A stretch of 64,000 nt of DNA from an uncultured Solirubrobacteraceae bacterium (GCA_963761355.1 CAVXHC010000016.1:2482-66481), one strand, 5' to 3'. Shown: positions 3,909-62,002, counted from the stretch's first letter. The notes: generated by a model not told the origin, from the letters alone. Numbers and translations: made by a program.

Positions 3909-5744
3909 ATGGACACGACCCTGCAGACGCCTCCGGCGGCCGGCGAGGACGCGCCGGCGGCGGCGCCCGAGGCGCTGCTCGCGCGGTTCGGTCTCGAGGC
4001 CTTCAGGCCGGGGCAGCGCGAGGCGGTGCAGGCGGCGCTCGACGGGCGCGACAGCCTCGTGGTGATGCCGACCGGGGGCGGCAAGTCGCTGTGCTACCAG
4101 CTGCCGGCGCTGGCGGCCGATGGCGATCCGAGCCACCCTCTGGTGGTCGTCGTGAGCCCCCTGATCGCGCTCATGTCAGACCAGCTGCGCCGCCTCGAGC
4201 AGGCGGGCGTGAGGGCGAGCATGCTGGCATCGGGGATGCAGGAGGGCCACAACTCGCAGGCTCTGCGGGACATCTCGGCGGGGGACACCCAGCTCGTGCT
4301 GGCGGCGCCCGAGCGCTTCGCCTCGGGCGCCTTCCGCGAGGCCCTGGCGCGCCGGCGGGTGTCGCTGTTCGTCGTGGACGAGGCGCACTGCGTGGCCGAG
4401 TGGGGGCACGACTTCAGGCCCGACTACCTGCGCCTGGGGGATGCGATCTCCTCGTTGGGGCGCCCGGCGGTGATGGCGGCCACGGCCACGGCCACGCCGC
4501 GGGTGGCCGAGGAGATAGCGGCGCGGCTGGGCCTGCGCGAGTGGGTCTCGATCCGCTCCGGCTTCGACCGCCCCAACCTCGCCTTCGACGTGTTCGGCGT
4601 GGAGGGCAAGGGCGCGGTCGCGCGCAAGCGCGCGGCGCTCGTGCACGTCCTCAGCGACGCGCGCTCGAGACCGGCGATCGTGTACTGCGGCACGCGCCGG
4701 GACACCGACGAGGTGGCGGCGATGATCGCGCAGCGCGGGATCGAGACGGTGGCCTACCACGCGGGCATGAGCCCGCAGGCGCGCCGCGACAGCCAGCAGG
4801 CGTTCATGCAGGATCGCGCCGAGGTCGTGGTGGCGACGAACGCATTCGGCATGGGCGTGGACAAGACGGATGTGCGGACGGTCGCGCACTGGGCGCTGCC
4901 GACGAGCCTCGAGGCCTACTACCAGGAGGCGGGCAGGGGCGGGCGCGACGGCGAGCCGGCGCGCGCGCTGCTGTTGGCGGCGAGGATGGATCTGGGGCGG
5001 CTGATCAGGTTCATCAACGAGCGCGACACGAGCGTCGCGGACGTCAAGGCCTATGTCGCGGCCCTGCGCAGCCGCAGCGAGCAGGGCGTGGTGGTGATCG
5101 GCCACGGAGCCCTCGCCGAGCGCGAACGGGTGCTTTTGTCGATCGCCGAGCGCGCGGGTGCGGTCGAGCTCGAGCCGGGCGGCCGCGACGGCCTGCTGGT
5201 GACGGTCACCGGCCGCGGCAGCCCGCGCGCGGCGTATGCGGCGATCAGGGCAGCCAAGGACCGCGGGTGGGAGTCCTACCGCTCGATCGAGCGCTTCATC
5301 ACCGGCAAGGAGACCTGCAGAAGGCGCCAGATCCTCGACCACTTCGGAGACGCGGCGGAGGGGGCCCCGAGCGGGCGCTGCTGCGACGTATGCGACCCCG
5401 ACGTGGAGCTCGAGCAGGCGGCCACGGCGCGTGCGGGGAGGGCGCGACCGGTCAGGGGGGCGCGAGCCACGGTGACTGGGGGAGCAGAGCGGGCGGGGGC
5501 CTCGGCCGATGAGCAGGAACAGGGCGAGCCGGTGGACGAGCAGGAGTTCGAGCGGCTGAGGACATGGCGCTGGGAGCGGGCCGAGGGCAAGCCGGCGTTC
5601 ACGGTGGCCGCCAACGCGGTGCTCGAGGAGGTGCTGCGCAGACGCCCGCGCAGCATCGAGGAGCTGATCGAGATCCGCGGGATCGGGCCGGCCTTCTGCG
5701 AGAAGCACGGCGAGTCCCTGCTCGCGGCACTCGGCTCCTCTTAG
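3909..5744 (+). CDS. recQ: RecQ-family ATP-dependent DNA helicase with HRDC domain
   Basis: MPTGGGKSLCYQ, DEAHC, EAYYQEAGRGGRDG, Zn-binding CRR...CCDVC and C-terminal HRDC. Confidence 0.95.
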   Translation: MDTTLQTPPAAGEDAPAAAPEALLARFGLEAFRPGQREAVQAALDGRDSLVVMPTGGGKSLCYQLPALAADGDPSHPLVVVVSPLIALMSDQLRRLEQAGVRASMLASGMQEGHNSQALRDISAGDTQLVLAAPERFASGAFREALARRRVSLFVVDEAHCVAEWGHDFRPDYLRLGDAISSLGRPAVMAATATATPRVAEEIAARLGLREWVSIRSGFDRPNLAFDVFGVEGKGAVARKRAALVHVLSDARSRPAIVYCGTRRDTDEVAAMIAQRGIETVAYHAGMSPQARRDSQQAFMQDRAEVVVATNAFGMGVDKTDVRTVAHWALPTSLEAYYQEAGRGGRDGEPARALLLAARMDLGRLIRFINERDTSVADVKAYVAALRSRSEQGVVVIGHGALAERERVLLSIAERAGAVELEPGGRDGLLVTVTGRGSPRAAYAAIRAAKDRGWESYRSIERFITGKETCRRRQILDHFGDAAEGAPSGRCCDVCDPDVELEQAATARAGRARPVRGARATVTGGAERAGASADEQEQGEPVDEQEFERLRTWRWERAEGKPAFTVAANAVLEEVLRRRPRSIEELIEIRGIGPAFCEKHGESLLAALGSS

Positions 5745-5771
5745 GCGGTCGGTCGCGCTCAGGGCGTCAGC

Positions 5772-34870: not shown

Positions 34871-35293
34871 GTGTCTGAGGAGTCCACGACCCCCGACCTG
34901 GTCGAGCTTTCCTATCGACGATTCGAGGCCATAAACAGACGGGACCTGGAGGCGGTGGTGAGCTTCTTCGCCGCTGACGCCATCTGGGACATGTCGCCAG
35001 TCGACATGGGCATCGTCGAGGGCCGCGGCGCAATACGCAATGCGCTCAAAACCTGGTGGGAGATGTTCCCAGGGATCGTGTCTGAGCTTGACGAGGTTCT
35101 CGACCTCGGCAACGGCGTTGTGCTCCAGGTTGTCACCCAGCGAGGTCACCCGGCCGGCAGCTCGGGCGAACTTCGCCAGCGTTCTGGCCGCGTTTCCATC
35201 GTGGTCGATGGCCTGATCGAGGCCCTGACGTCCTACAACGACATCGACGAGGCCCGCGCTGCTGCCGAACGCCTCGCCGAGTCGAGGGGGTAA
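34871..35293 (+). CDS. SnoaL-like NTF2 protein, type A (MSEESTTPDLVEL...ERLAESRG)
   Basis: FEAINRRDLEAV..FAADAIWD; GATACT 7 nt before the start. Confidence 0.88.
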   Translation: MSEESTTPDLVELSYRRFEAINRRDLEAVVSFFAADAIWDMSPVDMGIVEGRGAIRNALKTWWEMFPGIVSELDEVLDLGNGVVLQVVTQRGHPAGSSGELRQRSGRVSIVVDGLIEALTSYNDIDEARAAAERLAESRG

Positions 35294-35388
35294 GCGTTGT
35301 CGGAGGAGAGCTCATGACGCCCTGGACGTCACCCGCGACGGATGAAATGGGCGAGACTTGGCCCGCGAACCGAGGAGGATGAGCGCTT

Positions 35389-35781
35389 ATTTCTAAGCAG
35401 AACGTGGAGATCGTGCGCCAAGCGTGGGAAGCCTTTGCGCGCCACGACAATGAGTCGGCCCTGCGCCTCTACGACCCCGAGGTTGAGATACATGTCGGGT
35501 TCCTCGGCGGCGAGGTCTACCGCGGTCTTGCGGGTGTCCGAGATTTCTTTCGTGACTGGTTGGCGGTCTGGGACGAGTACGGATCGACGGTGGAGGAGTG
35601 GATCGACGCCGGGGATGATGTGGTAGCGGTGATACGTATATGGGGTCGCGGAAGAGCGAGCGGGGTCGGGGTCGAGGAACGTCAATCGCATGTCTGGACC
35701 TTGCGGGACGGCAGGCTCTGGCAGTTGCAGCGCTATGAGACGAAAGCTGACGCGCTCAAAGCCGTGGGGCTGACGGAGTAG
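35389..35781 (+). CDS. SnoaL-like NTF2 protein, type B (ATT at the homologous start; GTG 35404 is an alternative)
   Basis: (I)SKQNVEIVRQAWEAF...ALKAVGLTE. Confidence 0.82.
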   Translation: MSKQNVEIVRQAWEAFARHDNESALRLYDPEVEIHVGFLGGEVYRGLAGVRDFFRDWLAVWDEYGSTVEEWIDAGDDVVAVIRIWGRGRASGVGVEERQSHVWTLRDGRLWQLQRYETKADALKAVGLTE

Positions 35782-35784
35782 GCG

Positions 35785-36189
35785 ATGTCGCAGGCGAACG
35801 TGGAGATCGCGAAGCGCGTGATCGACGCTTTCAACGGGCGGGATGTCGATTCCATCTTCAAGTGCGTGAACTCGGATATCGAATGGTTCCCTGCGCTTCC
35901 CGGAGTCGTGGAGGGCGACGGCTACCGTGGCCGCGAGGGCATTGAAATGTACTTCGAGGAAATCTCGAACACGTGGGAGGAGTACAGCGTGGTGGGGCAG
36001 GACTTTCGCGATCTCGGCAACGACCGAGTTCTTGTTCTCAGCCGGGTAAAGGGACGTGGTAGAGGCAGTGGCGTCCAGGTCGATTCGCCGATTGGTGTCA
36101 TCTATGACTTTCGCGACGGCAAGATGTCGCGCGTCCGCGCCTATCTCAATCACGGCGAGGCGTTGCGGGCGGCGGGCGTCTCCGACTAG
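35785..36189 (+). CDS. SnoaL-like NTF2 protein, type B
   Basis: MSQANVEIAKRVIDAFN...EALRAAGVSD. Confidence 0.88.
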   Translation: MSQANVEIAKRVIDAFNGRDVDSIFKCVNSDIEWFPALPGVVEGDGYRGREGIEMYFEEISNTWEEYSVVGQDFRDLGNDRVLVLSRVKGRGRGSGVQVDSPIGVIYDFRDGKMSRVRAYLNHGEALRAAGVSD

Positions 36190-36671: not shown

Positions 36672-37934
36672 CTAGGCGCCGCCGGCCGGCCGCTGGCCCT
36701 CGCGCGGCCCCGGCGTGAAGCTCACCGGGAGAGAGGTGATCATGTTCGCCCAGTTCGAGACTAGACGCTGAGGCTCCCCGGCACTGCCAATGTCGGGCAT
36801 GCGACGCGCGAGCTCCTCGAACAGGACGCGCAGCTCCAGCCGCGCGAGGCCGGCTCCGAGACAGAAGTGGCGGCCGCCTCCCCCGAACGCGTCGTGGTCG
36901 GGCTTGGCGCGGCGGATGTCGAACCGCTCCGGCTCGTCAAAGACATCCTGGTCGCGCGACGCCGACGAGTACCACATTACGACCCTATCGCCCTCGGCGA
37001 TCGCGTGTCCGTCGATCTCGGTGTCCCTGAGCGCGGTGCGCGCGAACCACTGCACCACCGACGTCCAGCGCAGGATCTCCTCTACCGCGCCCGCGATCAG
37101 CGACGGGTCGGCGACCAGCTCAGCGAGCTGGTCGGGGTGCTCGAGCAGCGCGCACATGCCGCCGGCGGCCGTGTTGCGCGTGGTGTCGTTGCCGGCGAAG
37201 ACAAGCAGCCCGAAGAACACGAGGATCTCGCTGTCATCCAGCTGCTGGCCGTCGACCTGCGCATTGCGCAGCCGCATCACGAGGCTCTCGTCGTCTCCGG
37301 CGGCGGCCTGCTTCGCTATCTGTTCATGCAGGTAGCCGGCCATCTCCACGAACACCTCAGTCGCCGCGGCCGGCTCGGGTGAGCGCTGCGCCTCCTCGAT
37401 CTGGTCAGTCCATGCATGCAGGCGAGGAATGTCCTGGTCGAGGCAGCCCATCAGATCGACAAGAACGCCGAGCGGCACGGGAACCGCGATGTCGCGAGCG
37501 AAGTCGCACGCGCCCAGCTCAATCACGGCATCGAGAACGCGGGTTATGCGCCCGCGAACTGCGTCCTCGAGCTTTGCGACGGTATGCGGGGTGAACGCGG
37601 TCTGCAGGATCGCGCGGTACTTGGTGTGCTCCGGCGGGTCCTTGTACAGCAGCAGATTCCGGGTCAGGTCGAGCGGCACGACCTGGTCAGGCTCTAGGAA
37701 GATGCCCCGCTTCCAGGATGAGAATGTCGCAAAGTTGCGGCTGACTGCAGCGATGTCGGCGTGGCGCGTTAGCGACCAGAAGCCAGATCCATCGGGGAGC
37801 GTGTTCCAGCGGACCGGCGTCTCGGCCCGCATGCGTTCGAACAGCTCGTGCGGCGGGCCATCCTGGAACCAGACCGGGTCCATCAAGTCGACCTCTGCGA
37901 GATCGACTCCGTCAACTGAGCCTTTGGTCACCAT
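36672..37934 (-). CDS. cytochrome P450 (CYP124/125/142-like)
   Basis: FAGNDTT, EEILR and FGGGGRHFCLGA; start trimmed to MVTKG. Confidence 0.93.
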   Translation of the reverse strand: MVTKGSVDGVDLAEVDLMDPVWFQDGPPHELFERMRAETPVRWNTLPDGSGFWSLTRHADIAAVSRNFATFSSWKRGIFLEPDQVVPLDLTRNLLLYKDPPEHTKYRAILQTAFTPHTVAKLEDAVRGRITRVLDAVIELGACDFARDIAVPVPLGVLVDLMGCLDQDIPRLHAWTDQIEEAQRSPEPAAATEVFVEMAGYLHEQIAKQAAAGDDESLVMRLRNAQVDGQQLDDSEILVFFGLLVFAGNDTTRNTAAGGMCALLEHPDQLAELVADPSLIAGAVEEILRWTSVVQWFARTALRDTEIDGHAIAEGDRVVMWYSSASRDQDVFDEPERFDIRRAKPDHDAFGGGGRHFCLGAGLARLELRVLFEELARRMPDIGSAGEPQRLVSNWANMITSLPVSFTPGPREGQRPAGGA

Positions 37935-37978
37935 CCCTACCCCTCTCCCAGCCAAAACATGTAAGCCTCCGACACCGC

Positions 37979-38404
37979 CTACCCCCGTTCCTTGGCGAGG
38001 CGTTCGGCGGCGACACGGGCCTGGTCGATGTCGAGGTAGGTCGTAACCCGCTCGACCAGGATCCCCCGCCACAGGTAGACGAGTGCCTGCCGAGATTGAA
38101 CGTGACCGGCACTGCCAACGGGGCGGGCGTTCTGGCGCGCGACGGCAAGGGCAACTCCGCTACCAAGGTCCTGAGCCTGCTCCACAGCGAGCTCAAGCTT
38201 TTCATAAGCGTCGACCCACTCCTGCCACAAGCCACGCATGGCTGCATGATTCTCGAAGGTGCCCAAGCCCAAGGGCGAGAAGTCCCAGACGGCATCGGGA
38301 GCGAAGTGGCTCAGGATCGCATCCCAGTCGCCACGCTCAGCAGACGCCCAGAAACCGCGCACGAGCTCGACCAGGTCGGGGGTAGTGGACTCCTCGCACA
38401 TCAC
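37979..38404 (-). CDS. SnoaL-like NTF2 protein, type A
   Basis: MMCEESTTPDLVEL...AAERLAKERG; GATACT 7 nt before the start. Confidence 0.88.
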   Translation of the reverse strand: MMCEESTTPDLVELVRGFWASAERGDWDAILSHFAPDAVWDFSPLGLGTFENHAAMRGLWQEWVDAYEKLELAVEQAQDLGSGVALAVARQNARPVGSAGHVQSRQALVYLWRGILVERVTTYLDIDQARVAAERLAKERG

Positions 38405-38438
38405 GCAGTGGAGTATCCCGGACCGCTGCTTTCGCGGC

Positions 38439-40024
38439 GAGGCTGTTTCGTAAACATTCGCGCGTCCGTCAGCGCGGGCGTTCGCGGTGGGTTTCGCGCT
38501 CTGAGGGGCGTGGTGGTCTTGGCAGCGGTGAGACAGATGGGCCCGACCGGGCGTTCCCGGGCCCCTTTCAGGCCCCGGCGGTCGCTATTTGGCGGCTGTG
38601 GAGCTTCAGCAGATTGTGCGTAGCGGTGATTAGTCGCCATTCCGACCTGGCGGCGGCTCTGCCACGGCGTTGGAAGCGATCCATCCGGCGGTTGAACTTC
38701 GTATGTCCGAACACCGGCTCGATCATCGCCTGGCGTTTTCGGTAGAGCGCGTGTCCGAGCTCGGTGGAGAGCACTCGTCGCATGTGTGCGTAGGCGCCGC
38801 CATCCCACCCTGGACGGGTGCCCTTGCGGTGGCCGGCGTCGGGCGGGATCAGTACCTGGATCCCACGGTCGATGGCGTTCTCCATTTGCTCCCTGTGCCA
38901 GTAGCCGGCGTCGGCGAGCAGCACCCCCGGCGTCTCTGTGACACCCGCCGCCTGAAGCTCGCTCTGGGTCGCGTCGAGCATCGGCTGCAGATGCCCGAAA
39001 TCTGGTGAGTCGACCGTGACCTCGGCGGCGATCACGACCTGGTTCTCGTTGACGGCGGCTTGGGCGTTGTAGCCCTGAACGTAGCCGCGCGCGACCTTCA
39101 ACATGCGCGAGTCCGGGTCAGTCAGGTTGATCTTCCCCGCGGGAGTCTCGGGTGGTGAGTAGGGGGTTGGTGAGGCCCCGAGGCGGCGACCTCTGCTGTC
39201 CCGTGCATGCACGCGGTAGTGCTCGTAGGCGGCGTTCGCGCGGGACTCCGCCCACAGCTCCTCCTGCAGACGGCGCTTGGCCTCTTTCAAGCGAGCCGGG
39301 CGAGAACGCGGGATCGGCTTGGCTTCCTTGGCGCGTTCCTCATCGAGCTGGCGTTTGGCCTCGCGCAGCCAGCCGCGACGGCCCTGGCTGGTCGAGAGAT
39401 GCTCCGGCAGCTCATCGCCGCGCTTATCGCCATAGAGCTCGTCCTCGGCTGCGTCGACTTCGGCGGCCTCTTTGAGGATCTCCCGCGCGATCTGATCGAA
39501 GTCCGCGTTCTGCTCGCGGCTCGCGTTGGCGTGGACCTTGGTGCCGTCGACGGCGATCGTGCCGACCTTGACCATCCCCGCTCGCGCGCACAGCGTGAGC
39601 ACGCTGGTAAAGAGTCCGGCCAGAGCGTCTGAGTGCTCTGAACGAAAGCGATTGATCGTCACGTGATCGGGCGCGAGGTTCGACGCGATCACCCGGTAGG
39701 CGACGTCCTCCAGGCACGCGCGCTCGATACCTCGCGATGAGCGCTGTCCCTTCGCATAGGCGTAGAGCACGATCGCGACCATCATCGCCGGGTCATAGGC
39801 CGCGCGACCCCAACCGTCCTCGCGATATCGCGCGTAGAACGGCGACAGATCCATGTCCTTGACCGCGTCGATCACAAACCACGCCAGATGGTTCTCCGGC
39901 AGCCACTCGCGCAGCGAGGGCGACATCAACAACAACTGCTCACGATCACATTCGATGAAGTTCTGGGGCATCCCAGAAGTGCTTAACGACACCGGACAGA
40001 CCGGGGGGTTTGCGAAACAGCCTC
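38439..40024 (-). mobile_element. IS1182-family insertion sequence, 1586 bp
   Basis: 17-bp IRs GAGGCTGTTTCG(T/C)AAAC; 5-bp TSD GCGGC at 38434-38438 and 40025-40029. Confidence 0.9.
38568..39971 (-). CDS. IS1182 transposase
   Basis: GRAAYDPAMM...PDHVTINRFR...IAVDGTK...TDPDSR...GYNAQ...LADAGY...YRKRQAMIEPVFG. Confidence 0.93.
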   Translation of the reverse strand: MPQNFIECDREQLLLMSPSLREWLPENHLAWFVIDAVKDMDLSPFYARYREDGWGRAAYDPAMMVAIVLYAYAKGQRSSRGIERACLEDVAYRVIASNLAPDHVTINRFRSEHSDALAGLFTSVLTLCARAGMVKVGTIAVDGTKVHANASREQNADFDQIAREILKEAAEVDAAEDELYGDKRGDELPEHLSTSQGRRGWLREAKRQLDEERAKEAKPIPRSRPARLKEAKRRLQEELWAESRANAAYEHYRVHARDSRGRRLGASPTPYSPPETPAGKINLTDPDSRMLKVARGYVQGYNAQAAVNENQVVIAAEVTVDSPDFGHLQPMLDATQSELQAAGVTETPGVLLADAGYWHREQMENAIDRGIQVLIPPDAGHRKGTRPGWDGGAYAHMRRVLSTELGHALYRKRQAMIEPVFGHTKFNRRMDRFQRRGRAAARSEWRLITATHNLLKLHSRQIATAGA

Positions 40025-52498: not shown

Positions 52499-52917
52499 TG
52501 ATGTCCGAGGAGTCCAGGACCCCCGATCCGGTTGAGCTTGTGGGCAGGGCGTTTGAGGCTGCGAATCGCGGCGATCTCGACGCGGTGGCCAGCAGCTTCG
52601 CCGAAGATGCGACCTTCGACGGGAGGGGCGTTGGGGGACCCTTCGAGGGACGGGCGGCCATTCGCAGCATGCTTGAGGAGTGGTTTGCCACGTACGAGGA
52701 GTTGGAGTTCGGGCTTGAGGAAGTCCGCGACCTCGGCAATGGCGTTGTGTTCTCCGTGGTCGTTCAGAACGGTCGTCCGGCTGGCAGCGCCGGTCACCTT
52801 CGGCAACGCGAGGGATGGGTCGTCGTCTGCGTACGGGGCTTGATCGCACGCCTTACGACCTCCGAGGTGGATGACGCCCGTGCTGCCGGCGAACGCCTCG
52901 CGCAGGAACGGGGGTAG
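52499..52917 (+). CDS. SnoaL-like NTF2 protein, type A
   Basis: MMSEESRTPDPVEL...AGERLAQERG. Confidence 0.88.
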
Positions 52918-52920
52918 GCG

Positions 52921-53439
52921 ATGCCGCAGGAGAACGCGAGATTGGTTCAGCGCGCGATCGGGGCGATCAACGCGAGGGACATCGAGGGCTATCTCGCCTG
53001 CTGCACCGAGAACGTCAAGTTGGAGACGCCATTAGCCGCCGTTGGAGGGGTGTACGGAGGAATCGACGGCATCAGGCGTTTCTTTACGGACATCGAGGAA
53101 GCCGCACCCGATTTCCGGATCGAGCTTGACGGCGTCGAGGAGGTCGATAGCAAGCGCGTGATCGCGTTCATGCGCACTGGCTCCACGGGCCGCGCCAGCG
53201 GCATTCGCATGGCAGCGCCTACCCAGACCAACGTGTACGACCTGATCGACGGCAAGATCAGTCACGTTCGCATCTTCTTCGACCGTCAGGAGGCCCTCAA
53301 CGCCGCGGGCCTGGAGGAGCAACGGCTTGGAGTATCGATCAGTCGAGGTCGAAGGCGGCCCGGACGGCATTGGCGAGGGCTGTCTCTTGAGGGTCGAGCA
53401 GGATGCCGATCTGTGCTCCCAAAGCGCTCGCGGGGATAG
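52921..53439 (+). CDS. SnoaL-like NTF2 protein, type B; usual stop after AAGLEE lost
   Basis: MPQENARLV...DRQEALNAAGLEE, then read-through antisense into mazF. Confidence 0.8.
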   Translation: MPQENARLVQRAIGAINARDIEGYLACCTENVKLETPLAAVGGVYGGIDGIRRFFTDIEEAAPDFRIELDGVEEVDSKRVIAFMRTGSTGRASGIRMAAPTQTNVYDLIDGKISHVRIFFDRQEALNAAGLEEQRLGVSISRGRRRPGRHWRGLSLEGRAGCRSVLPKRSRG

Positions 53440-58731: not shown

Positions 58732-60588
58732 ATGAGACGGTTGCTGGCGTCACCGAAGCGCAGCGTTGTCGTGTTGACCCTGGTCGCACTGGGCGCGATC
58801 GCCCTGTTGGCCGTCGGCAGCATCGTCGTCGCGTCCCACGAGCAGACCAGCGTCGTCGACAAGCAGGTGCGAACGACGACGGCGGTCAGCTCGGTGGTCA
58901 TCGGCCAGCAGACGTCGAATCTGGTGGCCCTGGTTGAGAGCTACGCGAGTCGTCCGTCACTTACCAGCGCCGTCGCCCCCCGCAAGGGTGGCGCCGCGGA
59001 GGTCGAGGCCGCTCTCGCTGGTCTCGCGCACGCTGTCCCGGGCATCTCCGCCTCGTTTGTCACCGACCAGCACGGCACGTCGCTCAGCACCTATCCCCCC
59101 GAGCCCGCGGTCTATGGCACGAACTTCGCCTACCGAGACTGGTTCAAAGGGCTGGTCGCTTCGGGTCGTCCCTTCGTCGCAAACGCCATCCAAACCAAGG
59201 AGGCAAGTCACGCGCTCGCGATTACCGTGACGGACTACATCCGGGCACCGGACGGCCATCCGATCGGCGTCCTCGGCGTGAACTACAGCCTCGAATCGAT
59301 TGGCGCGTTCGCCGCCGGCGTGGGCAGAGCTCAGGGCATCACGCTGAACGTCACCGACAGGGCCGGGACCTCGTTGACCGCAGGAGGCCGGCATGGCCTC
59401 GTCTCGCTTGCGAGGGACCCCGGCGTGCAGGCGGCTCTCGCGGGGCGCAGTGGTCTGCTCGACTACTCGCCGCTCTTGGCCGACGGGCGCCACGGAGCCG
59501 AGGTGTTGTCGGCTTACGGACCGGTTCCCGCAACGGGCTGGACGGTGACGGCCTCAGTCAACAAGAGCGTCGCGCTTTCCGCGCTGGCCAGGCTCAGAGA
59601 CGCGGTTCTCGCGATCACGGCGCTGCTCGTCCTCATCCTGCTCGCGACGATTCGTATCGTGACCCGCTCCGACGGGCGCCGGCGCGATTCCGAGCGGGAG
59701 ACCGCCAACAGAGATCGAGAGCTGGCCCGAGTTCTGGAATCGACCAGCGAGGCGTTCCTCTCAACCGATGGCGCAGAAGTGATCACCGCATGGAGCGATC
59801 AGGCCGAGAAGCTGTTTGGCTGGGCCGCGGACGAAGTACTGGGGCGGAAGCTTGCCGACACGGTGATCCCGGCGGCGGAGCGTGACGAGAACGCTGGAGC
59901 TGAGGCCCGCCACCGCGCCGGGGCAAACTCGGCCGTTTTCGGGACGCGTATTGAGGCTACAGGGCTCCACCGTGACGGCCATGAGATTCCTGTGGAGATG
60001 AGCTCGTGGCCACACGAAGACGGCGACGGGCTGAGTGCGTTCGCCCACGACATCACCGAGCGCGTGACCGTTCGCGCAGAACGCAGGGAGCTGCAGGCCA
60101 GCCTGAGACGGCTCGCTGACCATGATCCCCTGACCGGCCTCTGGAACCGGCGGCGCTTCGAGGAGGAGCTCCAGCGCGAGGCTGCGCGATGCAAGCGCTA
60201 CGCCGAGCAGTCCGCGGTGCTGATGATCGACCTTGACGACTTCAAGAACGTCAACGACAGCCACGGCCACCAGGCCGGTGACGACCTGCTCGAGCTGGTC
60301 GCGAGCCGGATTCGCGCGACCCTGCGCGAGACCGACTCGGTGGCACGAATCGGCGGCGACGAGTTCGCGGCCATCCTGCCCAACATCGGTCCCGAGGCCG
60401 TCAACCAGGTGACGGACAAGCTGCGCAAGGCCATCCTCGCGAGCCGCATCACCGTCGACGGCACAACGATTGGCGTCGGTGCCAGCATCGGCAGCCAAAC
60501 TCTCGACGAGAACACCCCGGACCAGCAGGTGGCCATGGCCAAGGCCGACGCCGCGATGTATCAGATCAAGGCCGCCGCGCGCAGATGA
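58732..60588 (+). CDS. diguanylate cyclase (Cache-like, TM, PAS, GGDEF)
   Basis: HDPLTGLWNRR, IDLDDFK.VND..GH..GD and intact GGDEF. Confidence 0.95.
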   Translation: MRRLLASPKRSVVVLTLVALGAIALLAVGSIVVASHEQTSVVDKQVRTTTAVSSVVIGQQTSNLVALVESYASRPSLTSAVAPRKGGAAEVEAALAGLAHAVPGISASFVTDQHGTSLSTYPPEPAVYGTNFAYRDWFKGLVASGRPFVANAIQTKEASHALAITVTDYIRAPDGHPIGVLGVNYSLESIGAFAAGVGRAQGITLNVTDRAGTSLTAGGRHGLVSLARDPGVQAALAGRSGLLDYSPLLADGRHGAEVLSAYGPVPATGWTVTASVNKSVALSALARLRDAVLAITALLVLILLATIRIVTRSDGRRRDSERETANRDRELARVLESTSEAFLSTDGAEVITAWSDQAEKLFGWAADEVLGRKLADTVIPAAERDENAGAEARHRAGANSAVFGTRIEATGLHRDGHEIPVEMSSWPHEDGDGLSAFAHDITERVTVRAERRELQASLRRLADHDPLTGLWNRRRFEEELQREAARCKRYAEQSAVLMIDLDDFKNVNDSHGHQAGDDLLELVASRIRATLRETDSVARIGGDEFAAILPNIGPEAVNQVTDKLRKAILASRITVDGTTIGVGASIGSQTLDENTPDQQVAMAKADAAMYQIKAAARR

Positions 60589-60589
60589 C

Positions 60590-60797
60590 CTACCCCCGTT
60601 CCTGCGCGAGGCGTTCGGCGCCAGCGCGAGCCTCTGGCGTGTCACCGGAGGACACGACATGGGAAATCAGGCCCCGCTCCCACACGAACACGCAGCATCG
60701 CCTGGGCGCGATGGCGAGGCTCTCATGTCAACGGCGAGAAGGCGGATTTCGACTGCCGGAGGGGTCGGTCCGCGCTCTGCACACTCCTTTCAGACAG
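60590..60797 (-). pseudogene. internally deleted type-A SnoaL gene
   Basis: Starts CTG TCT GAA after the type-B stop; ends VFVWERGLISHV...EARAGAERLAQERG*. Confidence 0.7.
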
Positions 60798-60800
60798 CGC

Positions 60801-61202
60801 CTACTGCTCAAGCCCGACGGCCTCGAGGGCCTCAGACCAAGTCGGAAACGAGCGAACCTCGCGGAACGTCCCGTCGACGAAGCCCGAAATCACAAATCCG
60901 CGTCGTTGACTGACCTCAGCCTCCGAGCGCCTGATACGTCCAACCATGTCAACGAGCGCGACAACCCGATCTTGCGCGTCGCGGATGTCGTGGACCTCAT
61001 ATCGGAAGTCATCGAAGTTCTCGGAAAAGCCCGCCGCGAGCCTTCGCATGCCGTCATGCCCATGGTATGCCGACTCGTCCAACCAACGATCGATCGGGTA
61101 CCAGACGACGTCGCGCGAGAAGAATGAGAGCGAAGCGTCGATTCCTTCCTCGCTAAAGGTCTGGAACGCGTTTCGCACGATCTCCACGTTCTGCTGCGGC
61201 AT
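60801..61202 (-). CDS. SnoaL-like NTF2 protein, type B
   Basis: MPQQNVEIVRNAF...EALEAVGLEQ. Confidence 0.88.
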   Translation of the reverse strand: MPQQNVEIVRNAFQTFSEEGIDASLSFFSRDVVWYPIDRWLDESAYHGHDGMRRLAAGFSENFDDFRYEVHDIRDAQDRVVALVDMVGRIRRSEAEVSQRRGFVISGFVDGTFREVRSFPTWSEALEAVGLEQ

Positions 61203-61205
61203 CGC

Positions 61206-61286
61206 CTACCCGCGCTCCCACGCGAGGTGTTCGCCCGCAGCACGCGCGAGCTCGACCAGGTCAGGGGTTGTCGACTCCTCTACCAT
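61206..61286 (-). pseudogene. collapsed type-A SnoaL minigene, 26 aa
   Basis: MVEESTTPDLVEL fused directly to ARAAGEHLAWERG*; GATACT promoter retained. Confidence 0.85.
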
Positions 61287-61423
61287 CACTGGGCCAGTAT
61301 CTCGCAGCGGGCGCTTGGCTCTATAGCCCGAGCCAACCGCTACCGGATGGCAGGATCCCCAGCCGGCCAGGCCGACGCGGTTGTCTCAGGCCTCGTGCTC
61401 GTGTCGCCGTGCAGCCTTCGGAC

Positions 61424-62002
61424 TCAGGTCGCAGGGCGCGCCGTGAGCTCGCGATCCACTTCCCGACCAAGCCCGTGTAGCTCCCAGCCGGCACCCATCA
61501 GGAGGGCGCCGCGGAAGATCAGCACGATCCCGATTATCACGGCAAGCGTGGCCAGACTCGGGCCTGGCCAGGAGAGGATCACGATGCCGGCCAAGATGTC
61601 AAGGACCGCGACGGCGATGTTCCCACCCCGACCTTCAGGCTCGCCAAGGGCCGCAACGAAGCGCACCACTCCGGCGACGATGAACCACACGCCGAAGATC
61701 AGAACGAAGACAACGAGCGTCCCAAACGGTTTCTTGATCAGCACCAGACCGGCGATCGCGCTGAGCACACCGATCAGCGCGAGCAGGCCGCGGCCTTCAC
61801 CCCCGCCGAAGACAGAGCCGACGATGGCAAGGACGCCATCAACAAGCAAGAAGATCCCGCCGATCACCGTGAACGTGCTCAGGGTTTCGTGAGGCGAGGC
61901 AACGAAGAAGATTCCCACGCCGAGCACCGCCACGCCGAACAAGACGACCAACCACCATAGGCTCGCGAACCGGTGCAGTTCCTCATCAGCGAACATCGAC
62001 AT
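61424..62002 (-). CDS. HdeD/DUF308 membrane protein
   Basis: Six TM helices; WWLVVLFG...G.WFIVAGV. Confidence 0.88.
   Translation of the reverse strand: MSMFADEELHRFASLWWLVVLFGVAVLGVGIFFVASPHETLSTFTVIGGIFLLVDGVLAIVGSVFGGGEGRGLLALIGVLSAIAGLVLIKKPFGTLVVFVLIFGVWFIVAGVVRFVAALGEPEGRGGNIAVAVLDILAGIVILSWPGPSLATLAVIIGIVLIFRGALLMGAGWELHGLGREVDRELTARPAT

Follow-up and report, generated by a model that had tools for sequence, protein, structure and literature searches.

What remains of a gene when its whole core is lost while its start, its end and its expression signals stay in place, and does such a remnant still serve the gene behind it? The question is raised by a stretch of 64,000 nucleotides (nt) from an uncultured Solirubrobacteraceae bacterium (GCA_963761355.1, CAVXHC010000016.1:2482-66481), hereafter the window, in which a "minigene" made of the two ends of a SnoaL-like gene stands directly before B3, an intact gene of the SnoaL_2/NTF2-like kind. 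The initial annotation of this locus had offered two interpretations of the minigene: an "empty cassette" indicating that the cores of these genes can be excised, or a leader that preserves translation of the downstream gene.

Here, we report a comparative analysis of the minigene, of the paralogous type-A and type-B genes to which it and B3 respectively belong, and of other collapsed copies in related genomes and metagenomes. The minigene is the remnant of a gene of the type-A subfamily that arose by in-frame internal collapse. With a probability of about two in three, we interpret it as the deletion remnant of a full-length type-A gene that headed its array, the retained signals of which would still lead to expression of B3.

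The minigene is an internally collapsed type-A gene

All coordinates are those of the window. The minigene, the box before it, the joint behind it, B3 and a second type-A remnant described below all lie on the minus strand, and the central features are as follows:

61296-61301, minus strand: GATACT, a -10-like box, 6 nt 5' of the GTG and 9 nt 5' of the ATG of the minigene
61206-61289, minus strand: the collapsed type-A minigene, 27 codons from GTG or 26 from ATG
61287-61289 and 61284-61286, minus strand: the two possible starts, GTG and ATG respectively, read directly from the sequence
61248-61289, minus strand: remnant of the N-terminal block, from alignment to full type-A genes
61209-61247, minus strand: remnant of the C-terminal block, from the same alignment
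61206-61208, minus strand: the stop codon TAG, read directly from the sequence
61200-61208, minus strand: the stop-start joint TAG GCG ATG, with the minigene and B3 in one frame, 3 nt apart
60801-61202, minus strand: B3, an intact type-B gene of the SnoaL_2/NTF2-like kind, 133 amino acids, with its ATG at 61200-61202 (Pfam SnoaL_2, E=1.5e-11)

The open reading frame (ORF) of the minigene consists of MVEESTTPDLVEL fused to ARAAGEHLAWERG, the whole frame reading MVEESTTPDLVELARAAGEHLAWERG. Alignment to 10 full-length type-A proteins identifies these halves as residues 1-13 and the last 13 residues of a type-A protein, which bears out the original description of an N-terminus fused in frame to a C-terminus with the core gone. 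The window itself carries full-length relatives for comparison, namely the sets A1 + B1a + B1b (34871-36189) and A2 + B2 (52504-53439); the A1 and A2 proteins start with (M/V)SEES(T/R)TPD(L/P)VEL and end with ARAA(A/G)ERLA(E/Q)(S/E)RG. The N-terminal half of the minigene is identical to A1 (EESTTPDLVEL) at 11 of 11 positions, and the C-terminal half matches A2 (ARAAGERLAQERG) at 11 of 13. Both halves show 88-91% DNA identity to paralogs over 33-67 nt, and the N-terminal block is matched by the type-A hidden Markov model (HMM) at 29 bits. Both ends are thus homologous to type-A genes at the protein and DNA levels and the middle is absent, as expected of a pseudogene remnant. The length of 26 residues given initially holds for the ATG start, although the frame has 27 codons if GTG is used, and the junction to the type-B gene is intact as reported, with TAG-GCG-ATG leading into an intact B3.

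The deletion removed about 114 codons (about 340 bp), that is, the entire NTF2 cone. In the AlphaFold model of A2 (mean confidence score pLDDT 92.9), which has the NTF2/SnoaL/ketosteroid-isomerase cone fold with a TM-score of 0.7-0.76 to TerC, NTF2-like proteins, ketosteroid isomerase and limonene epoxide hydrolase, residues 1-9 are disordered and a C-terminal helix spans residues 123-137; the minigene retains the disordered residues, a single turn at the start of helix 1 and the greater part of the C-terminal helix. It has no Pfam match and falls outside SnoaL_2 (PF12680), covering only residues 1-13 and 126-138 of the type-A model. The retained end blocks are the most conserved parts of type-A proteins, with amino acid identities of 0.73 and 0.81, versus 0.41 in the core. 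An Imm-NTF2 immunity-protein assignment was considered and dropped, as no such Pfam match was found at E<=0.01. A literature search on SnoaL plus Solirubrobacter returned no papers.

Type-A genes head arrays of type-B genes linked by a conserved joint

The genome from which the window derives (4.03 Mb, 21 contigs) contains type-A genes in about 20 full-length and 16 partial copies, and type-B genes in about 53 and 6, respectively, so that 16 of 36 type-A copies are broken versus 6 of 59 type-B copies, a count that includes some weak matches. Every cluster has the same order along the direction of transcription, one or several type-A genes followed by type-B genes. The distribution across the genus is patchy, with tens of copies in a few species and almost none in most, and related loci were found in metagenome-assembled genomes (MAGs) of Solirubrobacteraceae and Thermoleophilaceae.

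Type-A genes are preceded by GGGATACT 9-13 nt before the ATG, often in the form GATACT-N6-GTGATG; GATACT occurs at this distance from the start for 15 of the 18 type-A N-terminal motifs in the genome and also directly 5' of B3 orthologues that lack any type-A gene. With a -10 box merely 6-13 nt before the start, the mRNA would be leaderless or nearly so; at the sequence level the minigene itself, with the box 6 nt before GTG, has the make-up of a leaderless ORF, and the type-A genes look like leaderless or near-leaderless head genes. Genome-wide, GATACT is followed by a long ORF in 14% of cases versus 7-10% for control hexamers, an enrichment so modest that the case for a promoter rests on conservation within the family. 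The assertion that the GATACT promoter is intact stands as to the presence of a conserved -10-like box, but neither a -35 element nor a consensus sigma-70 promoter was detected there.

A joint of the form TAG-(G/A)CG-(A/G)TG precedes about 24 of 50 type-B genes in the genome, after either a type-A or a type-B gene, and the same joint lies ahead of most B3 orthologues in other MAGs. TAG is a minority stop codon in this genome (28%, versus 67% TGA), which marks the joint as a conserved module. The minigene and B3 have the geometry of a coupled pair, being on the same strand, in the same frame and separated by 3 nt from stop to start. At all A-to-B and B-to-B joints, such as those at 61200-61208, 35779-35787 and 52915-52923 of the window, the neighbouring genes are always in the same frame with a single UAG between them, since the spacer is exactly 3 nt. 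Read-through of UAG at such joints, if it occurred, would yield two-domain fusion proteins; we saw no sign of it here.

Collapsed type-A genes recur, in part independently

We ran a motif-gap-joint pattern on 151 genomes of the genus and scanned metagenome contigs with the same pattern. With a gap of 43-73 nt, only two matches were found in the 151 genomes, the minigene studied here and one in genome G007. The reversed pattern gave no match in the same genomes, so the pattern is not due to chance. No shorter minigene (gap of 12-42 nt) was found in the 151 genomes, a gap of 74-104 nt in 12 family-rich genomes gave nothing beyond the copy on contig C2 listed below, and in three expanded genomes with 25-60 matches each to the junction model (G024, G013 and G014) there was no minigene in the windows searched. 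The scan of metagenome contigs yielded eight matches: three true minigenes, two full-length type-A genes with a chance in-frame TAGACGTTG, and three unrelated sequences. Altogether, there are five further collapsed type-A genes, one of them with a twin on a metagenome contig:

C14:13223-13378, own genome: 41 codons, MPDESTTPDLLKLHARLTDA fused to TNYSDIDQTRADAERLAQERS and a stop, directly before an intact type-B gene
C2:189908-190183, own genome: 35 codons, with MLEESTTPDPVEIARRVAEAAKRRD, ending at TAG before an intact type-B gene
G007: 26 codons, GATACT-N6-GTG AGC ACT, then EEPTTPDPVE fused to RRAVAERLAESRG and a stop, with the joint TAG GCG ATG
L050, metagenome contig: the twin, a G007-type minigene, 99-100% identical, with intact type-B genes behind it
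L049, metagenome contig: about 29 codons with a 1-nt frameshift, before a decayed type-B gene
L054, metagenome contig: 24 codons, with the stop 8 nt before the joint, followed by intact type-B genes

The G007 junction lies within 1-2 codons of the junction of our minigene. The C-terminal blocks of the two minigenes are only 64% identical to each other, whereas each is 82-85% identical to full-length type-A genes, and the G007 block ends in ESRG, as does the neighbouring full type-A gene. Each half of our minigene is likewise nearer to full type-A genes than to the G007 minigene. The two minigenes thus derive from different type-A subtypes and represent independent events. The collapse at our locus is, accordingly, not a one-off deletion with unique endpoints, given five further collapsed minigenes and, among them, one of independent origin with nearly the same junction.

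A separate observation concerns the type-B gene that follows the G007-type minigene. Between L023 (G007:C6, about 5326-5760) and L050 (about 340-740), both on the minus strand, this gene has a replaced core: the flanks are 94-100% identical and the core about 45%, with the breakpoints inside the conserved ends of the gene, namely its first ~10 and last ~6 codons. In G007, this copy carries a frameshift as well. This exchange is most simply explained by replacement from a paralog through homologous recombination, not by excision.

Junctions are heterogeneous and consistent with ordinary deletion

Comparison of the six collapsed copies, which measure 24, 26, 26, ~29, 35 and 41 codons, gave a divided answer to the question of whether their junctions coincide. 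The left breakpoints differ, falling after codons 13, 13, 16, 18, 20 and 25. The right breakpoint falls three times at codon -13 from the stop (our minigene, G007/L050 and L049) and near -13/-14 in an in-frame fusion described below (L031), but the other three collapsed copies have it at -21 (one) or about -2 (two). Three independent collapses and one fusion thus retain approximately the last 13 type-A codons, and the junctions as a set are not identical. Such heterogeneity argues against site-specific excision.

The sequences of type-A genes offer a simpler source of deletions. GCG or GCGCG is common to the N-terminal VEL-AR(R) and the C-terminal DE-AR-AA segments, and exact repeats of at least 5-8 nt between the first 90 and the last 100 nt of type-A genes are common, with 61-72% of them in phase. 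Because of the strong codon periodicity, these end-to-end repeats are mostly in phase, and deletions are therefore mostly in frame by default. Ordinary deletion at microhomologies would explain both why such genes collapse and why the result tends to remain in frame, and the recurring breakpoint at codon -13 can be accounted for by either of two ordinary causes, microhomology or constraint on the last 13 codons.

The notion of an empty cassette with excisable cores, understood as programmed, site-specific excision, finds no support in these results. The junctions differ, there is no integron integrase (the best match in a genome search with TIGR02249 scored 75.7 bits versus a cut-off of 265, and the hits were generic tyrosine recombinases only), and the single core swap is a replacement. 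What we find is tidy, recurrent gene decay with a conserved joint, not a programmed cassette system.

B3 is under selection and its orthologues show a graded series upstream

B3 has more than 250 homologues, the best of which are 70-83% identical and are named "ketosteroid isomerase-like" by the Joint Genome Institute (JGI); a sequence search of the Protein Data Bank (PDB) with B3 matched no solved structure. The ratio of nonsynonymous to synonymous substitution rates (dN/dS) of B3 versus its orthologues is about 0.25-0.35, so B3 is a live gene under purifying selection. What stands upstream of the orthologues, and of two further type-B genes of the same genome, varies widely:

L044: an intact full-length type-A gene
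L035 and L040: a type-A gene broken by a stop or a frameshift
L027/L031 (MAG MFD04463.bin.2.29), 2566-2997: a methyltransferase fragment of 143 residues that continues in frame into the last 13-14 type-A codons
L043: six type-A codons only, with the stop lost
L033, L047 and L042: another type-B gene or a B/A chimera, with the same joint
L048: the -10 box directly followed by the joint, GATACTGGGTAGGCGATG
L030 and L038: again the -10 box directly followed by the joint, GATACTGAGTAGGCGATG and GGATACTGAGTAGGCGATG
C14:34995, own genome: the -10 box joined to the joint, GATACTGGGTGGGCGATG
C3:44579-45112, own genome, minus strand: behind GGGATACT, GTG TCC GAG GAG TAC GCG ATG, with VSEE fused to the type-B gene

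The methyltransferase fusion ends in AATAAAQRLAQERG and a stop, directly before the closest B3 orthologue (83% identical). In the fusion on C3, four type-A start codons are in frame with the joint and TAG has become TAC, so that the type-B gene gains a VSEEYA extension together with the type-A promoter. The L042 chimera, an observation in its own right, combines a type-B N-terminus and core (MSQENVEVV...) with a type-A C-terminus (DPDQARAAAERLAQERG and a stop). The minigene thus represents one stage of a recurrent path in which a head gene decays and its expression signals are retained, or taken over, by the gene behind it.

The last 13 codons and a candidate hairpin over the type-B start

To characterize the joint, sets of 10 and 39 A-to-B junctions were aligned, the latter from several species and including 61198-61260 of the window. 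Codons that are rare in the genome are fixed in the 39 junctions: CGT in 31 of 39 (13% genome usage) and GCT in 31 of 39 (12.5%), with GAA in 38 of 39 and CGG GGG in 32-33 of 39. Such fixation points to either nucleotide-level constraint or ongoing gene conversion. RNAalifold predicts that the ARAAG codons pair with CGG-GGG-UAG-GCG-AUG, covering the type-B start, and in our minigene the corresponding element would be located as follows:

61198-61248, minus strand: candidate junction hairpin, with the ARAAG codons (-13 to -9) as left arm and CGC GGG TAG GCG ATG CC, including the B3 start, as right arm

The deletion junction (CTC/GCG) lies at the 5' base of this putative hairpin. Across the alignments 93-94% of hairpin cells are paired (93.8% on the 39 junctions), versus 36-58% in slid controls; three pairs show compensatory double changes, one of them in our minigene (G-C, columns 26/48), and in 6-14 of 500 shuffles the values are as high as those observed. 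The hairpin is suggestive, a lead and not a result. The collapsed copies that keep both the left arm and an intact type-B gene (our minigene, G007/L050, C14 and the L031 fusion) are all in frame through the left arm, and the frameshifted L049 has a decayed type-B gene, which in this small sample fits the prediction from a hairpin opened by translation. Copies without the left arm would, on the same assumption, need no translation through it.

A more far-reaching proposal, which we hold only tentatively and consider unlikely, is that the last 13 type-A codons plus UAG-GCG-AUG constitute a structured inter-cistronic module that makes the downstream NTF2-like gene dependent on the upstream ribosome, that the arrays diversify by core swaps between joints, and that the minigene is a minimal "driver" cassette. 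Within this scheme, the driver form would recur because every collapse in which the hairpin survives would also have to preserve translation through it.

How the minigene may have arisen and what it may do

In the scenario that we favour, the deletion remnant of a head gene still serving B3, a single internal loss of about 340 bp, caused by slippage or illegitimate recombination where the two ends have a few bases, GCG(CG), in common, would have spared the -10 box, the start with codons 1-13, the final 13 codons and the joint, all in frame. Transcription would start at the old type-A promoter, at the GTG/ATG; a ribosome would translate the frame of 26-27 codons through the last 13 codons and terminate at UAG; and B3 would then be translated through reinitiation over the 3-nt spacer, unfolding of the junction hairpin, or both. 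The suggestion that the minigene is a leader preserving downstream expression fits the comparative pattern, in that type-A genes head the arrays, B3 is under selection and other collapsed heads stand before intact type-B genes; frame retention, by contrast, is weak evidence for it.

Several observations weigh against this scenario. An in-frame outcome is expected in about two-thirds of microhomology deletions, so frame retention is no proof of selection for coupling. The B3 orthologues that follow the -10 box directly indicate that type-B expression is possible without an upstream ORF. The upstream gene, encoding a DUF308 membrane protein, is co-directional and has no clear terminator, so that read-through could also supply B3 mRNA, and a consensus scan of the locus for promoters and terminators returned none. 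Covariation lends the hairpin weak support, since most alignment columns do not vary, and the minigene RNA folded as a single sequence does not exceed shuffled sequences in stability (z=+0.78). The sample of collapsed copies is small. Finally, no full allele for comparison was found in relatives: a search among the examined species with the flanking GGDEF protein gave domain-level matches only, with no orthologous locus and hence no syntenic relative.

Some of these points speak directly for a neutral scar, that is, a pseudogene without a role, kept ends that are incidental, and a B3 expressed via its own G-rich Shine-Dalgarno-like stretch and/or read-through from DUF308. Decay is rampant in the family (16 partial type-A copies, frameshifted type-A genes, collapsed type-B genes, orphan junctions), in-phase microhomologies favour in-frame deletion by chance, the RNA structure of the single sequence is not unusual, and minigenes are rare, with the two matches (43-73 nt) and none (12-42 nt) in 151 genomes. 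We nevertheless consider this explanation possible but rather unlikely, because three independent collapses and one fusion retain the same ~13 terminal codons, because all forms with those codons and an intact type-B gene are in frame while the frameshifted L049 precedes a decayed one, and because the G007-type minigene is 99-100% conserved between two assemblies with flanks that are 94% identical. Conservation of the retained blocks (0.73 and 0.81, against 0.41 in the core), together with two independent collapses of the same length and nearly the same junction, might instead be read as the signature of a functional 26-residue peptide, for example one that binds B3 or a regulatory leader peptide. 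This appears improbable: in the type-A model the retained parts amount to a disordered tail and part of one helix, the other minigenes differ in length and content (35 and 41 codons, truncated forms), there is no run of a single amino acid as in attenuator leaders, and the C-terminal block is conserved at the nucleotide level with rare codons fixed, which points to an RNA or DNA element rather than a peptide.

That a site-specific system removes or exchanges the cores, the minigene being an empty site, would agree with the contrast between conserved ends and divergent cores, with the conserved joint between all cassettes, with the one clear replacement of a type-B core between near-identical strains with breakpoints inside the end blocks, and with the recurrence of the right breakpoint at codon -13. 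The odds of such a system are nonetheless very poor, given that both left and right junctions differ among the six minigenes, that no integron integrase was identified (75.7 bits against the cut-off of 265), that an Rfam scan gave no relevant match (sX6 only, sub-threshold, E=0.33), that the deleted segment is not flanked by shared inverted or direct repeats, that G024, G013 and G014 had no minigene in the windows searched, and that recombination between paralogs accounts for the core swap. An artefact, in which the metagenome assembler created the 340-bp gap, is conceivable for a single assembly of a repeat-rich family but is hardly credible, as the joined blocks share a few bases at most, not enough to lead an assembler astray, two independent assemblies contain the analogous G007 minigene, and the junction is clean and in frame.

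Relation to known systems

Mycobacterial operons can open with leaderless short ORFs (Canestrari et al., bioRxiv 10.1101/834739; Shell et al. 2015, as cited in PMC12548453). The minigene resembles them in having a -10 box a few bases before AUG/GUG and in being a very short first ORF close to the real gene and well placed to control its translation. Unlike these ORFs, it is the remnant of a 140-residue paralogous gene and not a dedicated sensory leader, and it contains no run of codons for sensing an amino acid. Translational coupling requires very short distances between stop and start (reviewed in PMC12548453) and, according to the same review, which cites Huber et al. 2019 and 2023 in this context, proceeds by termination-reinitiation or RNA unfolding. 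Coupled pairs share with the minigene and B3 the same strand, a 3-nt stop-start distance, a G-rich stretch before the start and, possibly, a hairpin over the downstream start that the upstream ribosome would open. In contrast to the usual coupled pairs, TAG-GCG-ATG is a nucleotide-conserved module repeated in dozens of paralogous pairs, and coupling is a prediction here.

Pseudogenes produced by microhomology deletion provide another parallel, with possibly 3-6 shared nt (GCG/GCGCG) at the junction, many decayed copies in the genome and an endpoint at the base of a potential hairpin. A link between deletion endpoints and quasi-palindromes was reportedly drawn by Glickman and Ripley in 1984. 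The minigene departs from typical deletion pseudogenes in that it keeps every expression signal and the frame, and nearly the same outcome was reached independently in another species. Integron cassettes and attC sites are similar to the A-B arrays inasmuch as small promoterless genes follow one promoter, with a possibly structured repeat at the boundaries; unlike integrons, the arrays have no IntI, their boundary is a coding sequence plus a stop-start joint and not attC, and the collapse junctions are heterogeneous. Within the SnoaL/ketosteroid-isomerase/NTF2-like superfamily, full type-A and type-B proteins match Pfam SnoaL_2, whereas the minigene retains none of the fold.

The minigene appears to be a concrete, datable case of the birth of a short upstream ORF by collapse of a gene onto its own expression signals, which the gene behind it would have gone on using, and its origin from a collapsed paralog is visible, unlike that of the known leaderless short ORFs. 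The series from full type-A gene through broken gene, minigene of 41, 35 or 26 codons and four-codon fusion to a -10 box placed straight before the joint may serve as a natural deletion experiment on what looks like a coupled operon with leaderless mRNA in a soil lineage that has received little study (Thermoleophilia). Dozens of paralogous SnoaL-like genes share the joint, which is conserved at the nucleotide level and, if it is a true coupling hairpin, would be a reusable expression module. For annotation, frames of 20-40 codons ahead of SnoaL-like genes call for caution, as they are remnants and not new small proteins.

The surrounding locus and minor observations

The array is bounded downstream by a convergent GGDEF gene and flanked upstream by the DUF308 gene:

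58732-60588, plus strand: GGDEF diguanylate-cyclase gene, convergent, downstream
60590-60709, minus strand: 5'-truncated type-A remnant, the last ~35-39 codons, ending in FVWERGLISHVVSSGDTPEARAGAERLAQERG and a stop (positions 176-214 of the type-A HMM)
61311-61391, strand not assigned: inverted repeats between the DUF308 gene and the -10 box, I6 (11-nt arms, 8-nt loop) and I1
61424-62002, minus strand: DUF308 membrane protein gene (Pfam DUF308, E=1e-19)

The second, partly deleted type-A copy noted in the initial annotation is therefore present. It begins about 90 nt downstream of B3, no type-B gene follows it, and its TAG is 1 nt away from the GGDEF stop codon. Together with the C-terminal block of the minigene it forms a 43-nt direct repeat (D1, 77% identical). 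Two further repeats upstream of this remnant, D3 and D4, were considered as another junction and rejected as chance similarity because the FVWERG there aligns to the normal type-A core. The inverted repeats at 61311-61391 could be a repetitive extragenic palindromic (REP)-like element or a terminator.

The reverse collapse, in which the type-B gene is missing, was seen at about 37930-37981 of the window (minus strand), after a type-A gene at 37979-38584, and at C7:204053 of the same genome (G000): a full type-A gene and an intact TAG-GCG-GTG joint are followed by a mere 7-12 codon frame (VSEAYMFWLGEG and a stop, or MSSRALK and a stop). An orphan joint at C3:432562-432660 of this genome comprises about 10 type-A C-terminal codons (..AAEHLAEERR and a stop), TAG GCG ATG and then a frame starting MSQDRVEASS..., in which no type-B gene is recognisable. 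Lastly, a segment of about 150 nt is identical at five sites of the genome (C2:219351, C3:1-149, C14:10092, C16:40916-41065, corresponding to about 38435-38584 of the window, and C20:21136-21285). It reads in frame as RPPGPERGPGTPGRAHLSHRCQDHH..., lies just upstream of some type-A genes and once at a contig end, and probably represents one terminus of a mobile or REP-like element at which the assembly breaks.

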